From: a virus
IMG/VR virus record: IMGVR_UViG_3300020599_000003
Span: 1 to 64,000 of that record
Length of the DNA: 64,000 nucleotides
Direction: 5' to 3' (one strand)
The position numbers and the translations under genes were made by a program. The notes beneath the pieces were generated by a model that saw only the letters and a list, made by a program, of their open reading frames with translations, had not been told where the DNA came from and ran no database searches. Of this stretch, positions 3 through 41,332 are shown piece by piece. How positions within the stretch are numbered: position 1 is the stretch's first letter; every line of letters starts with the position of its first letter.

Positions 3-476
3 CAGAGCCCGGTTCTGAACTTCACCGAGCGGTACATCGACGAGACCGGTCAGGCCCAGGCCCGGATGCGCCCGATGTCGCTGCTCCGATTCCTGACCGA
101 GTGGATCAAGTATCGCATCGACCTGGAGAAGCGCGCGTGCGACTATTGGATCAAGGAGGCTGATAAGGCAATCCGTAAGCTCGAACTCCTGATGATGGCG
201 TGCGACAATCTGGAGTTCCTGTTCCAGCTCTTGAAATCCAAGCTCGATCGGGCTGGAATGAACGCCAAGATCGCCGCCAAGTTCAAGATCACGCCCGAGG
301 AAGCCAACGTCATCACGGAGATGAAGTACTTCCAGCTCTCGAAGCTGGAACGTGAAGCTCTTCAGAATCAGAAGAAGCAGGTGCAGGCGGACAAGGCCGA
401 GCTGAACAAACGGAAAACCAATCCTCGTCCGTATCTCGCAAAGCAATTGGAGAAATTGGCTGAGCTCGCCGCCTGA
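3..476 (+). CDS. Type II topoisomerase subunit A (GyrA/ParC-like), C-terminal part; 5' end lies outside the window
   Basis: Frame is open from the window edge (QSPVLNFTERYIDE...). KFKITPEEANVITEMKYFQLSKLEREAL resembles the conserved GyrA/ParC coiled-coil end (QAxAILxMxLxxLxxLE). No beta-pinwheel CTD follows. Confidence 0.7.
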   Translation, partial: QSPVLNFTERYIDETGQAQARMRPMSLLRFLTEWIKYRIDLEKRACDYWIKEADKAIRKLELLMMACDNLEFLFQLLKSKLDRAGMNAKIAAKFKITPEEANVITEMKYFQLSKLEREALQNQKKQVQADKAELNKRKTNPRPYLAKQLEKLAELAA

Positions 477-523
477 CCAATTTTAGGTGGCCTACACACA
501 ACCCACTCTGTAAGGAAGAAACC

Positions 524-720: not shown

Positions 721-749
721 TTTTCATTGCCACAGAAATGTGGTAAAAT
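721..749 (+). promoter_or_regulatory. Sigma70-like promoter with extended -10
   Basis: TTTTCA-17 nt-TAAAAT with TG at -15/-14, upstream of the H1-like gene. Confidence 0.5.
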
Positions 750-1278: not shown

Positions 1279-1308
1279 ACAACGAGCCTCCCTAGGGAGG
1301 CTCGTTGT
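1279..1308. terminator. 30-bp perfect palindrome, likely intrinsic terminator
   Basis: ACAACGAGCCTCCCTAGGGAGGCTCGTTGT, 34 nt after the H1-like stop. Confidence 0.7.
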
Positions 1309-17612: not shown

Positions 17613-17703
17613 TCACGGAGGCCCCAGCCCGGTAGTGCCAACCCGGCCGCGACCGCTCAAGCGCATGGTCGCACCCGTCGTCTCAACCAACTTTAGGTGA
17701 TTT

Positions 17704-18660
17704 ATGAATCAACGCCCCGTCAAGAAGTCGAGCAAGAAATCTGTCAAGCGTCCGGGCCTGGGCCAGTCGGCCAAAATGTTCCGGCGTGAATCCCGTAAGC
17801 CCAACCCCAAGATCATGGTCCAGCGCTCGCCTCTGCACGGTCTCGGAGTGTGGGCACAATACCCAATCAAGGCAGGCGAGTTTCTGGCCGAGTACGTCGG
17901 TCAGCTGATCACGCCGGAAGAAAACGAGCGGCTCCAGTCGCACACGGATGACCCCAACCATACCTTCTCGTTTGGTCTGGAGTGCGGGATGATTATCGAC
18001 GGTGGTGTCGAAGGCAACATCTCGCGGTACATCAACCACTCGTGCTCACCCAACGCGGAATTCCGCGAAGTGCCCTATGCGGAGGGTTGCCCTCTGGAGA
18101 TGAACAGCCGCCTGTTCATCTACGCCACGCAGGACATCGGCGCGGGCGAAGAGATCTTCTTCGACTATAGCCTACAGTACGATGGGCCCATCACTCCTGC
18201 AGTGAAGGAAGCATACAAGTGCATGTGCGGCTCTGAGAACTGCCGTGGCACCATGCTGGACCTCTCGTACAAGCCGCCTCGTACTCCGAAGGAGCGGGTC
18301 GAGGACCTGGAGGCGCAAGTCGAATCGCTGAACAGCATCGTCGAATCCCAGAGCGACCTGCTCAAGACGCAGGGCGACCTGCTCACCAAGCTGTCCCAGC
18401 AGGTGCTGACCCTCACCCGGCAGGTCATGGGCGAAATCGCGGAGAACTTGCCGACCGATCCGCCTGCACCCACCATGGAAGAGGTCGAGCGCGTGCTGGC
18501 GGAATCCGTGGACACCCCCGCGCCTCACGTCGGCGACGCTGTGCAAACTCCGGATGGTACGCCCGTCGGTCAGGAGGTCGTCGTTGTCAACACACCCACC
18601 GCTCCGACCGGCACCTTCACGCCGCGCAGACGCATCTTTCGCGGCCTTGGTAACGTCTGA
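17704..18660 (+). CDS. SET-domain lysine methyltransferase with post-SET motif
   Basis: HGLGVWA, EYVGQLI, RYINHSCSPN, EEIFFDY, CMCGSENCRG. Confidence 0.93.
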   Translation: MNQRPVKKSSKKSVKRPGLGQSAKMFRRESRKPNPKIMVQRSPLHGLGVWAQYPIKAGEFLAEYVGQLITPEENERLQSHTDDPNHTFSFGLECGMIIDGGVEGNISRYINHSCSPNAEFREVPYAEGCPLEMNSRLFIYATQDIGAGEEIFFDYSLQYDGPITPAVKEAYKCMCGSENCRGTMLDLSYKPPRTPKERVEDLEAQVESLNSIVESQSDLLKTQGDLLTKLSQQVLTLTRQVMGEIAENLPTDPPAPTMEEVERVLAESVDTPAPHVGDAVQTPDGTPVGQEVVVVNTPTAPTGTFTPRRRIFRGLGNV

Positions 18661-19006: not shown

Positions 19007-19216
19007 ATGGCCTGCAATGACAATTGCCACTACGGCCCAGCGCCGCACGTCTGCTTTTACAAGATTCCCGGCGCTAACATGGGGCAGAGCAGGACGCTGC
19101 CCGAATCCGAATGGCCGGATAACTACGAGCCGGACCCGGACGTGCCGGGTCTGGGCATGCACCACGCATGCGGCTGGAGCCGCGCCGCTCAGCCCACCAC
19201 CAAGGAAAGGACATGA
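19007..19216 (+). CDS. Small Cys/His-rich hypothetical protein
   Basis: TGATG coupling; C..C...HVC pattern. Confidence 0.55.
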   Translation: MACNDNCHYGPAPHVCFYKIPGANMGQSRTLPESEWPDNYEPDPDVPGLGMHHACGWSRAAQPTTKERT

Positions 19217-19701
19217 CCAACCAGAACAACGCCGCGCAGGCGGCAGAGCGAGCAATTAAGGCCGCCATCCGCAAGGCATACGACGACGGCTACAACGACG
19301 CCAAGATGGCCCCTGACAATTGCAGCACCTATTGTGGCCAGCGCGCCGAGCGTGAAGGCGCTGCCGCCCTGCTGTCCAAGCTGCGCGCCCCTGTAGCCGA
19401 TGCCCAGCCGGACTACCCCGGCGCAACGGTGGCAGACCGGCTGGACGCAATGGCCGACGACTGCGCGCCCGGTTCGCAGAGGGCCGCTGATCTGCGCGCT
19501 GCTGCCGCCGTGTGGCGTAAGCATTTGGCTGGACCTGCCGCCCAGCCCAAGCGCAGCCCGTATAACGCAAGCGGTTCTCTGTCCGAGTACGGCATTTTCC
19601 CCGAATGCGATGCTACCCCTGCCGCCCAGGCCAGCGGGCACCCTGCCGATGATTTCGACGATTCGGATATTCCATTCATCCGCAACGATGGGAGGTCCTG
19701 A
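19213..19701 (+). CDS. Prophage-type hypothetical protein with SSB-tail-like DDFDDSDIPF
   Basis: RBS AAGGA; MTNQNNAAQAAE...LLSKLRAPVAD; acidic DIPF near the C-terminus. Confidence 0.65.
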   Translation: MTNQNNAAQAAERAIKAAIRKAYDDGYNDAKMAPDNCSTYCGQRAEREGAAALLSKLRAPVADAQPDYPGATVADRLDAMADDCAPGSQRAADLRAAAAVWRKHLAGPAAQPKRSPYNASGSLSEYGIFPECDATPAAQASGHPADDFDDSDIPFIRNDGRS

Positions 19702-22429: not shown

Positions 22430-22771
22430 ATGCTGAAGTGGGAGCGGGGCCGACAGGACGGTGGCTATGACAAGCTGCTGATCCTGTCGTCCGCCATCAT
22501 TCCGTTCGACATCTGGCTGCTGCGCTTTCCGAAAGGGGCGCGCATTGCCGAGCACGTCGATCCGGTGGATGCGGAATTCAACCACTACCGCATGAACGTC
22601 ATCGTGAAGCCTGCCAAGCGCGGCGGCGAGTTCCGTGTCACGAAGGCCATCATCAACTGGCGCTTCCTCAAGCTGTTCCGGCCGGACGTGTCTCCACACT
22701 CAGTCACGCAGGTCGATGAGGGTACGCGCTACGTCCTCAGCATCGGCTGGCTCACACGGAGAGCTCCGTAA
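22430..22771 (+). CDS. 2OG-Fe(II) oxygenase
   Basis: HVD...HYRMNV...H.V...G.RYVLSIGW (HxD...H...R). Confidence 0.8.
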   Translation: MLKWERGRQDGGYDKLLILSSAIIPFDIWLLRFPKGARIAEHVDPVDAEFNHYRMNVIVKPAKRGGEFRVTKAIINWRFLKLFRPDVSPHSVTQVDEGTRYVLSIGWLTRRAP

Positions 22772-22773
22772 AC

Positions 22774-22783
22774 CAATTTTATG
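22774..22783 (+). promoter_or_regulatory. Recurrent motif CAATTTTATG, candidate phage promoter
   Basis: Exact copies at 41323-41332 (+) and 30038-30047 (-). Confidence 0.45.
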
Positions 22784-22811
22784 GGCATCACCAACGCTGC
22801 ACGGTACACCC

Positions 22812-24485
22812 ATGAAAGACCCCATCACTTCCCTCCTGAAGTTGTTATACGTATTCGTGGTCGACTATGTGACCAACGGCGCGAATGGTCGCTCGCACGA
22901 GGTCTTCGACCATCTGCGTGAAGCCTACCGCACTGCCGACCCCGCTTACAAGAAGCGCCTCCAGCCTGAGCTCGACGACGCCATGCGCGCAGCCGGGAAG
23001 AATCCCCACGCCAAGACACTGGCCTACGCGGCGCTCGGTGTCACGCTGAAGAGCGTGATTCCCGAGATCGCGCACGACCGTGGCATCACCAATCAGCAGC
23101 TGGACCTGTTCAAGGCGCTGGGTCTGTATCTGCGCACGGATTCCCCTCCGGCGCTGGCAAAGCTGTCCAAGCTGGCGCTGTCGGCCACTCACGATAGCTG
23201 GATCGCCCAGAAGCTGGCAAAGGACGAGGTCCCGAAGCAGGATGACAGCAAGCTCCGCTATCTGGTGCGCAAGTTGACTGGTCGGGATGACACCAAGCTC
23301 ACGATGGACGAGGCGGTGCGCACCAAGGGCCGCTTCCCAAAGATGTACAAGGAATACCTGGCACTGCGTCGCCAGCACACGCAATCGTGGAAGGACGCAC
23401 TCCAGACCTACGTCAGCCAGTCAGGGGCGCGTCTGGTGCCCATGAAGCAATGGGAACAGTTCGCCAAAGCAAACGGAATTGAGACCACCCTCCCTACTGG
23501 TTTCGATGGCCTCATCGATGACCTCGGTCGCTTCTACACGCGAGACCATCGCCTGATCGACGGTGTACCCAACACCACGACCTTCCCGTCGGTCATCATG
23601 AACAAGAACTACGGGAAGGTCAACGGCGGTGACTGGTACTTCATGGCAGTGCGTGCCGACGGCAACGCGGGTCCGTACTTCTACACGGTAGACTACAAGA
23701 AGTCTCAGCGTGAGAAGAAGTTTGAGAAGGTGAAGGACTTCAGCAAGGTCCTGGAGACCATGCACAAGAAGTGGTTTGCGAAGGTGAAGAACTTCGACCC
23801 CACTGACCCGAAGTCTGTTGCGGCTACGATCCTGGAGATCTTGTACCTCTATTCGGCCCGTATCGGTGGACGCGGCAACGCAGCGAACGGGGAACCTACC
23901 TTCGGCATCAGCACGTTGCTGGTGAAGCACATCTATCCGCAGTCCAATGGCGATATCTTCATCCGCTACCCCGGCAAGGATGGTGTAGCCACTAAGCACA
24001 TCCTCCGGATCAACGACCCGATCCAGAAGTTCATCATCAACAACCTGATGCACCTCATCCAGGACAAGAAGCCTCGTGACCCTGTCTTCACGGTCGAGAA
24101 GGGCAACCGCCAGGTGCCTATCAACTCCGCTCAGGTCAACGGGTACTTCTCGTCGCTGGGCGCGCCCGATGGTGTGACTGTACACAAGCTACGTACACGG
24201 CGCGGCACTCAGATCGCTCGTGAATGGGTTGACCGCCAGATGGAGAAGGGTCCTCGTTCGCAGCCTAAGAACCCGAAGGCTGCCCTGGAATTGCTCAAGC
24301 AGATGGCGACGAAAGTCGGCAAGGAACTCAACCACGTCCGACGCAACGCCGCTGGCGTGCAGAGCATCACACCCTCCACTGCTCTGCAGAATTACATCGA
24401 CCCCACTCTATGTAAAGAGATCTATGATTTCTGGGGCATCCGCTATCCGCCCTTCCTTGAGAAGTTACTCGGTACGGCTGGTTAG
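22812..24485 (+). CDS. DNA topoisomerase IB with long N-terminal extension
   Basis: SARIG...GISTL...YPGKDG...HKLRT...LNH...NYIDP catalytic pentad. Confidence 0.85.
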   Translation: MKDPITSLLKLLYVFVVDYVTNGANGRSHEVFDHLREAYRTADPAYKKRLQPELDDAMRAAGKNPHAKTLAYAALGVTLKSVIPEIAHDRGITNQQLDLFKALGLYLRTDSPPALAKLSKLALSATHDSWIAQKLAKDEVPKQDDSKLRYLVRKLTGRDDTKLTMDEAVRTKGRFPKMYKEYLALRRQHTQSWKDALQTYVSQSGARLVPMKQWEQFAKANGIETTLPTGFDGLIDDLGRFYTRDHRLIDGVPNTTTFPSVIMNKNYGKVNGGDWYFMAVRADGNAGPYFYTVDYKKSQREKKFEKVKDFSKVLETMHKKWFAKVKNFDPTDPKSVAATILEILYLYSARIGGRGNAANGEPTFGISTLLVKHIYPQSNGDIFIRYPGKDGVATKHILRINDPIQKFIINNLMHLIQDKKPRDPVFTVEKGNRQVPINSAQVNGYFSSLGAPDGVTVHKLRTRRGTQIAREWVDRQMEKGPRSQPKNPKAALELLKQMATKVGKELNHVRRNAAGVQSITPSTALQNYIDPTLCKEIYDFWGIRYPPFLEKLLGTAG

Positions 24486-36510: not shown

Positions 36511-36966
36511 ATGAGCGCCGTCGAACTCTACCTCCCTCTCGGTCCGGCCTTCTCGTTGAAGATGGGGAAGATCTGGCCGGAGCCCTACGCCACTCCTGCA
36601 GCCGACGCATTCCTGGAAGACTGGAACTCGGGCCAGATCTATCTGATCTTCGCTGGGGACAACATCGTGGGCGTCACTGGCTACTTCTTGGACACCCATT
36701 CCACCTCCGTGTACTTGCGCTGGACCGGCATCTTGCCGGAGTATCGTCGCAAGGGCTACGCCTCGAAGGCACTGACGGTACTGCGCAACGCGCTGTCGCA
36801 CGACTACTCCGGGTGCAAGCTGGTGGAGCTCGTGCCTGACAACGAGTACGGGGTCGCGGTCAAGCAGTTCTTCCTCTCGCAAGGCTTCCAGGAAGACCCC
36901 GACGTGTACACGCCGCCGAACGAATGCTCGGACTGGCCCACCATCGCAATGTCCATCACCATTTGA
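36511..36966 (+). CDS. GNAT-family acetyltransferase
   Basis: IVGVTG...WTGILPEYRRKGYAS acetyl-CoA motif A. Confidence 0.8.
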   Translation: MSAVELYLPLGPAFSLKMGKIWPEPYATPAADAFLEDWNSGQIYLIFAGDNIVGVTGYFLDTHSTSVYLRWTGILPEYRRKGYASKALTVLRNALSHDYSGCKLVELVPDNEYGVAVKQFFLSQGFQEDPDVYTPPNECSDWPTIAMSITI

Positions 36967-41322: not shown

Positions 41323-41332
41323 CAATTTTATG
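41323..41332 (+). promoter_or_regulatory. CAATTTTATG motif
   Basis: Upstream of 41338 and the structural-type gene 41672. Confidence 0.45.

Follow-up and report, generated by a model that had tools for sequence, protein, structure and literature searches.

An apparently host-derived SET methyltransferase gene in a phage related to Ralstonia phage phiRSL1, outside any chromatin module

In the prokaryotic world, SET proteins that act on the H1-like proteins of their own cell have been described from chlamydiae, where cpnSET binds and methylates Hc1 and Hc2 (Murata 2007, as reviewed in PMC3980110) and NUE is reported not to methylate Hc1 (PMC3980110). We analysed a SET gene in a virus genome of IMG/VR (record IMGVR_UViG_3300020599_000003, 177,803 bp with direct terminal repeats), of which the first 64 kb (positions 1 to 64,000) are hereafter called the window. 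The phage (178 kb) is related to Ralstonia phage phiRSL1. A preliminary description of the window had cited the chlamydial case, which the review bears out, and had proposed on a similar concept that the SET gene forms a phage chromatin module together with the genes for a lysine-rich H1-like protein and a topoisomerase IB (Topo IB). We found that the SET gene is intact and under purifying selection, and that the proposed module does not hold up. The observations as a whole are best explained, with slightly more confidence than doubt on our part, by a host-derived SET methyltransferase which probably acts on a lysine-rich DNA-bound protein and is part of no module. The coordinates of all features are given in Table 1.

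The likeness of the phage enzyme to cpnSET and NUE is limited to the SET domain. Among solved structures the closest were ASH1L and NSD2 (best, E 5e-20), with MLL and SETD2 also among the matches (range E 5e-20 to 1e-16; PDB 4ypa, 7e8d and others), all aligned over SET and post-SET at about 30-35% identity. Unlike these proteins the phage SET has no AWS/pre-SET or other chromatin-reader domains, and their substrate specificity is not transferable to it. SET proteins encoded on Burkholderiales chromosomes (Pusillimonas, Achromobacter, Burkholderia, Paraburkholderia, Variovorax) share about 50% identity over SET/post-SET and the same catalytic and zinc-binding residues; they comprise about 160-260 aa with a lysine-rich tail, whereas the phage SETs, with 267-318 aa, have a longer basic N-terminus and, in place of such a tail, a coiled coil followed by a proline-rich linker and a TFxPRxR end. 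Two SET proteins of other phages are more remote, ORF62 of Stenotrophomonas phage vB_SmaM_Ps15, annotated as a SET protein (PMC9025141), with about 30% identity (E 0.1), and that of a 735-kb uncultured phage (LR756501), likewise with about 30% identity (E 2e-4). Both have another architecture and genomic slot and are acquisitions unrelated to the one described here. SET domains go unmentioned in a review that compares 224 jumbo phages. A SET methyltransferase in a phage is uncommon, but not unprecedented.

The open reading frame (ORF) of 318 aa matched the Pfam family PF00856 (SET) with E 1.2e-22 and 80.7 bits (cut-off 22.4) over profile positions 1-104 of 105, and with 83.5 bits at genome level. 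Invariance was judged in an alignment of 14 phage and bacterial SET homologues, in which the GxG glycines G46 and G48, the stretch N111-H112-S113-C114, the residues E150...D154-Y155 and the zinc-cluster cysteines C114, C173, C175 and C180 do not vary. The glycines, the NHSC motif, the tyrosine of FDY and the post-SET CxCx4C cysteines also align with ASH1L/NSD2. On these features the gene is predicted to encode an intact, apparently active SET lysine methyltransferase, and in this the preliminary description was right.

Metagenome contigs in synteny with the window yielded eight phage homologues (59-77% identity, 267-315 aa). Within this phage clade dN/dS ranges from 0.11 to 0.16 for the SET domain, from 0.14 to 0.28 for the basic N-terminus and from 0.43 to 0.49 for the C-terminal half; the values for the SET domain indicate purifying selection, by which the enzyme has been retained. 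Three members of the clade, the one in the window included, carry a 9-residue insertion within the SET domain. Residues 1-35 are similar to the PVKKAVKK tags that a RecA-like protein and others of this phage carry, and this basic N-terminus is predicted to be a DNA-targeting tag. The coiled coil is followed by a variable proline-rich linker and then by the TFxPRxR end. Among 1.84 billion representatives searched with the C-terminal half, the matches were one clade member and two repetitive coiled-coil proteins, with no relatives beyond the phage SET clade.

Past the phage clade, the next-best matches were chromosomal SETs of Alcaligenaceae (Pusillimonas, Achromobacter), with about 50% identity in the SET half only. 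The family is present in 77 of 301 sampled Burkholderiales genomes, a tally that takes in one unpublished genome (G206), on which none of the other claims depends; the genome G027 was left out. We built a tree from 80 named bacterial and 8 phage sequences by a quick method, and the bacterial SETs in it largely track taxonomy. The phage SETs form one clade (support 100) inside the Alcaligenaceae set (support 95), adjoining the sequences of an Alcaligenaceae metagenome-assembled genome (MAG) and an Achromobacter sp. (support 90). As part of the joint explanation given above, the tree suggests that SET was captured once, by one phiRSL1-like subclade, from the chromosome of an Alcaligenaceae-type host.

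The topA gene adjoins SET in 34 of the 80 named bacterial loci (L047-L126), in divergent orientation in 32 cases and in tandem in 2, and in Pusillimonas and the Alcaligenaceae MAG the SET gene lies 6-8 nt downstream of topA in tandem. Most bacterial SETs carry a lysine-rich tail after the post-SET region, which ranges from APKR up to 83 residues, and the adjacent TopA proteins bear H1-like AAKK tails. Together, the topA neighbourhood and the lysine-rich tails point to DNA-associated work for the bacterial SET family. In the TopA of Variovorax, the one tested, the tail is followed by a SWIB domain by Pfam (E 4e-26), and many others share the sequence motif in this place. A pairing of SET with topA was seen across Burkholderiales (among loci L047-L126, L021 and L088); in the literature searched, SWIB, topoisomerase I and SET are treated together only for Chlamydiae.

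To follow the proposed partners of SET in related phages, SET-bearing metagenome contigs were extended by stepwise walking along Logan contigs. An alignment-based scan of IMG/VR gave five loci, and two single-protein scans of IMG/VR gave no relatives. Walking upstream on two SET contigs led to type II topoisomerase (topo II) genes, then to a positional orthologue of the lysine-rich gene (829-1245) and then to a conserved protein of about 270 aa, and the lysine-rich gene is present in all 3 assessable SET-bearing genomes (the window; L012 with L002; L011 with L009). The topo II subunits, a coiled-coil/lysine-rich protein with a DDF-type tip and a homologue of the 270-aa protein were also found in Achromobacter phage Motura, Burkholderia phage BCSR5, phiRSL1 (ORF342) and two uncultivated viral genomes (UViGs). 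In a search for PF00856 with E up to 1, none of the six SET-less records, one of them a 41%-complete fragment (G302), gave a match. In total 5 of 5 SET-less relatives have the lysine-rich protein and 3 of 3 checked (phiRSL1, BCSR5, Motura) have Topo IB, to which the Topo IB of the window is 42-46% identical. Both genes are kept by the SET-less relatives and thus belong to the old core of the group, and SET joined late, in one subclade. The co-occurrence of SET with H1-like genes in related phages, which had been proposed as a check, is therefore one-way and uninformative on a functional tie. The lysine-rich gene is 16.5 kb and Topo IB 4.1 kb away from SET, separated from it by genes for a dCMP deaminase, DnaJ, a PNKP-like protein, a ligase, a kinase-like protein and a cell-wall hydrolase. 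We found neither a specific co-occurrence, nor a shared conserved regulatory element, nor physical clustering, and a co-regulated module of the three genes does not stand. The absence of module structure, like the integrity of the SET gene, the selection on it and its origin, is a result of the analysis.

A motif common to the regions upstream of the lysine-rich gene, SET and Topo IB had been taken as a link between the three. Three such strings are indeed present in the window at 476, 17686 and 22772 (0.29 expected), but the element proved to be genome-wide and the copy at SET to be unconserved and at chance level. With at most one mismatch CAATTTTATGG occurs 3 times in the window (0.28 expected), and CAATTTTATGG-like elements have at least 10 copies genome-wide, which are intergenic and oriented with the downstream gene; the element looks like a putative phage promoter family. 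The string before SET has 3 mismatches to CAATTTTATGG; the window contains 65 sites of this class, where 70 are expected. A comparison of 93 gene-upstream 50-mers gave five pairs with a 14-mer identical at 13/14 positions (0.8 in shuffles), and the four other than the SET pair join unrelated genes via stop-codon and ribosome-binding site (RBS) context. The pattern (C/G)CAATTTTATGG is often followed by ...ACTAAC..., with sites at 476, 22772, 30047(-) and 41323 in the window and at 79561(-), 99631(-), 109246(-), 121626(-), 124727(-) and 155115(-) in the genome. The copy at 41323 ends 4 nt ahead of an ATG, and the transcript may be leaderless.

In relatives, a gene of 198-210 aa directly precedes SET, and the spacer 17613-17703 of the window aligns to the final ~90 nt of this gene, plus the stop and the RBS. 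From this alignment the motif copy before SET is the leftover 3' end of a lost upstream gene together with the RBS, AGGTG at 17695-17699, whose overlap with the string had correctly been noted as a caveat. The copy is not conserved in the loci examined of the seven closest relatives. As a dedicated promoter common to the lysine-rich gene the string was rejected, being unconserved, a chance-level match and made up of gene remnant and RBS. For six small genes that lie in relatives from the ligase-downstream gene to SET, no homologue exists anywhere in this genome. SET itself is located within a long co-directional array, with no sigma70-like promoter close upstream and no same-strand terminator-like site.

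The second proposed partner, the protein encoded at 829-1245, is real as a lysine-rich ORF. Its codons fit the genome (AAG, GCC, CCG, GGC) and the antisense ORF would need rare TTG and CCA, so that codon usage favours the plus frame. The protein contains K 17%, A 24%, P 11% and G 10% (pI 11.7). A coiled coil occupies its N-terminus and an acidic-aromatic tip its C-terminus, and the sequence further includes AVKK motifs and seven GRPA cores that are similar to AT-hooks. It has a lysine/alanine-rich, highly basic low-complexity tail and belongs to none of the described H1-like families (Hc1, HC2, linker histone); the term "H1-like" is a description of composition only. Searches of Pfam, NCBIfam and PHROG (E up to 0.01-0.1) gave no family and only a weak coiled-coil match, tblastn against phages and a word-seeded search of 5.8 billion proteins gave no matches, and in the ESM Atlas all matches were below usable scores. 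The searches fail because of the low complexity of the protein, and the orthologues were found via synteny (L012:5126-5593; L011:5881-6360; Motura L015:2943-3404; BCSR5 L016:3099-3584; phiRSL1 ORF342, L218:4203-4736). The phiRSL1-group family shares a coiled coil, a lysine-rich tail and an acidic-aromatic tip (DDFLI, DDFSWS, DEFNW), and its position is constant, with the topo II subunits ahead of it and, next behind it, a conserved protein of ~270-400 aa, for which in the window (271 aa, 1374-2189) an Atlas search gave nothing usable. The tip is reminiscent of the docking tips found in SSB-type tails. The family may assist the phage topoisomerase as a DNA-binding accessory.

With its own promoter and terminator, the lysine-rich gene is predicted to be an insulated monocistronic unit. 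The separate sigma70-like promoter had been named as a caveat to the module and was recovered in our scan as an extended -10 site. TGGTAAA and a GGGGTCATCA-TCCCC leader hairpin are conserved in the SET-bearing relatives L012 and L011; in the leader (745-830), the hairpin GGGGGTCATCAATCCCC is kept in two relatives and matches no Rfam family. An ORF of 63 aa (524-715) with a C-terminal transmembrane segment separates the lysine-rich gene from the topo II gene; L011 has it and L012 lacks it.

At least four further proteins of this phage bear similar lysine-rich tags. Tagged proteins of the PVKKAVKK type are encoded outside the window at genome positions 130602-132083(-), 172513-173166(+), 119772-120641(-) and 121933-122346(-). 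A RecA-like protein (Pfam RecA, E 2e-17) begins with five AVKK repeats, and lysine-rich N-termini of the RecA-like protein are present in SET-less relatives too, while a 217-aa protein combines RPVKKAVKK repeats in its basic N-terminus with a hydrophobic segment and a long acidic tail of DEGY repeats. In view of these proteins the 829-1245 protein is no privileged candidate substrate.

The original proposal, in which SET methylates the phage's lysine-rich protein within a co-regulated module including Topo IB and thereby controls condensation or uncoating, is unlikely in our judgement. The presence of the lysine-rich gene in every assessable SET-bearing genome, the coiled coils in both proteins, the chlamydial precedent of cpnSET with Hc1 and the tail repeats, which are of the GRPA/AVKK type in the SET clade versus K/A/E in SET-less relatives, are all in line with it. 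However, five SET-less relatives have the lysine-rich protein and Topo IB, which thus do not need SET, the difference in repeat type comes from a single clade and represents one event, the genes are distant from each other with differing promoter contexts, the motif copy before SET is an unconserved remnant, and equally lysine-rich tags occur on other proteins of the phage. SET enzymes in general have many non-histone substrates, and SET is here an accessory acquisition confined to one subclade, as is typical of host-interaction genes, with a C-terminal coiled coil that has no known partner; it might thus methylate a host protein unrelated to DNA (a translation factor, ribosomal protein, surface appendage or defence protein) in takeover or anti-defence. 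We regard this as less likely again, as the topA context and the lysine-rich tails of the bacterial family and the basic N-terminal tag of the phage enzyme point to DNA-associated targets, and SET sits among DNA-metabolism genes. Very improbable, finally, is an enzyme acting on a small molecule, in the way that the SET domain of BurB acts on methionine (PMC12542666), or a decaying passenger gene: the post-SET zinc cluster is complete, the nearest proteins of solved structure methylate protein lysines, and decay does not agree with purifying selection and conservation in eight diverged phages.

In the explanation that we favour, a host-derived enzyme acting on a DNA-bound protein, a single capture of SET by a phiRSL1-like subclade from an Alcaligenaceae-type host would have been followed by retention of the catalytic core and by replacement of the bacterial lysine tail with a coiled coil of 47 residues and, at the C-terminus, a short basic motif; the enzyme carries a basic N-terminal tag styled like those of the phage's other DNA-associated proteins. 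SET would be expressed as one gene of a long rightward DNA-metabolism array and would share no dedicated unit with Topo IB or the lysine-rich protein. During infection it would methylate lysines of a lysine-rich DNA-bound protein, either the ancestral one in the host (a nucleoid protein or the tail of TopA) or a phage protein with a lysine-rich tag, and thus alter how this substrate holds DNA. From the context of the bacterial family, the most likely substrate class appears to be lysine-rich proteins bound to DNA, whether from the host or from the phage, and a DNA-associated basic substrate is plausible. A more specific version is put forward as tentative, and we rather doubt it: SET may be a virus-encoded chromatin writer, anchored to DNA by its basic tag, that methylates H1-like tails and retunes compaction or topology in infection, with the host TopA tail, nucleoid proteins and/or the phage's AVKK/GRPA-tagged proteins, 829-1245 included, as possible targets.

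Several points weigh against the favoured explanation. The phage clade sits on a stem of 1.66 changes per site in a tree made by a quick method, which leaves doubt about its precise sister group. Fewer than half of the bacterial loci show the topA link. When the TopA tails of 34 SET-bearing and 46 SET-less genomes were compared, the median number of lysines in the best 30-residue window was 7.5 versus 6, a weak shift (p 0.011, uncorrected for phylogeny), and lysine-rich tails are common in SET-less genomes. We did not count this shift with SET presence as evidence, and TopA is not identified as substrate. BtSET of B. thailandensis and the Bordetella bronchiseptica homologue, which are probably members of the Burkholderiales SET family, are together with LegAS4 described as effectors on eukaryotic host histones (PMC3980110); the effector role of BtSET and LegAS4 suggests that part of the family has a rather different biology. 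In an AF2 model made from the 14-sequence alignment, the helix 195-241 is the sole confident part, and the mean pLDDT over the SET domain is 53. Both the substrate class and the effect of SET are what we infer.

Regarding the remainder of the window, most genes in the first 26 kb are oriented rightward, and the array reads ligase ... SET ... cell-wall hydrolase ... Thg1 ... Topo IB. Topo IB was confirmed at the place described, and so was a GNAT protein at 36511-36966 (E 3e-10), while the 2OG oxygenase candidate at 22430 (19.4 bits) fell below the Pfam cut-off of 27. A stretch of 41 nt (19364-19404), which falls within the ORF 19168-19701, recurs without mismatch (100% identity) in Achromobacter phage Mano and Bordetella phage PHB04 and is there annotated as a transcriptional regulator. 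An Alcaligenaceae host is consistent with this exact match. An Rfam scan of the window gave no known RNA family.

Table 1. Features of the SET gene, the lysine-rich gene and Topo IB, with coordinates in the window
Feature	Position	Strand	Evidence or remark
SET/post-SET protein-lysine methyltransferase gene, 318 aa (predicted)	17704-18660	+	Pfam SET, PDB matches, phage homologues, dN/dS
Basic N-terminal extension, residues 1-35 (RPVKKSxKK ... RFRRESRKPNPK)	17704-17808	+	conserved across phage clade
SET catalytic domain (NHSC, EEIFFDY)	17839-18171	+	PF00856 83.5 bits; invariant N111, H112, C114, Y155
Post-SET zinc-cluster motif (Y-K-C-x-C-G-x4-C-R-G-T-M)	18214-18255	+	C173, C175, C180 invariant
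C-terminal long helix/coiled coil, residues 195-241, phage-clade-specific	18286-18426	+	AF2 helix, pLDDT 81-89
Basic C-terminal motif TFxPRxR	18613-18633	+	kept in 8/8 phage homologues
Intergenic remnant preceding SET (91-nt spacer)	17613-17703	+	holds ACCAACTTTAGGTG string (17686-17699) and RBS AGGTG
Promoter-like element copy, past topo II A-subunit stop	476-489	+	conserved in L012, L011
Sigma70-like extended -10 promoter of lysine-rich gene (predicted)	721-749	+	scan: 1 site vs 0.1 expected
Lysine-rich basic protein, 138 aa	829-1245	+	composition, codon usage, positional orthologues
Intrinsic terminator past lysine-rich gene, 13-bp stem (predicted)	1279-1308	+	
Perfect CAATTTTATGG copy upstream of Topo IB	22772-22784	+	conserved in L002, L005
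Topoisomerase IB	22812-24485	+	Pfam E 4.5e-19; core gene of phiRSL1-like group, independent of SET

To our knowledge, there is hardly any work on the methylation of lysines in bacterial nucleoid proteins, and we know of no phage SET enzyme with a known substrate. The phage SET described here is suited to such study, as it combines a traceable host origin and signs of selection with a short list of lysine-rich candidate substrates. For the bacterial family, the location of Burkholderiales SET genes beside topA genes whose products have H1-like tails suggests an endogenous role for proteins that are usually discussed as effectors against eukaryotic histones. If the phage SET is indeed a chromatin writer, the same logic would apply to the SET-topA(SWIB) pairs of Burkholderiales, which would give these SETs an endogenous role at the nucleoid.

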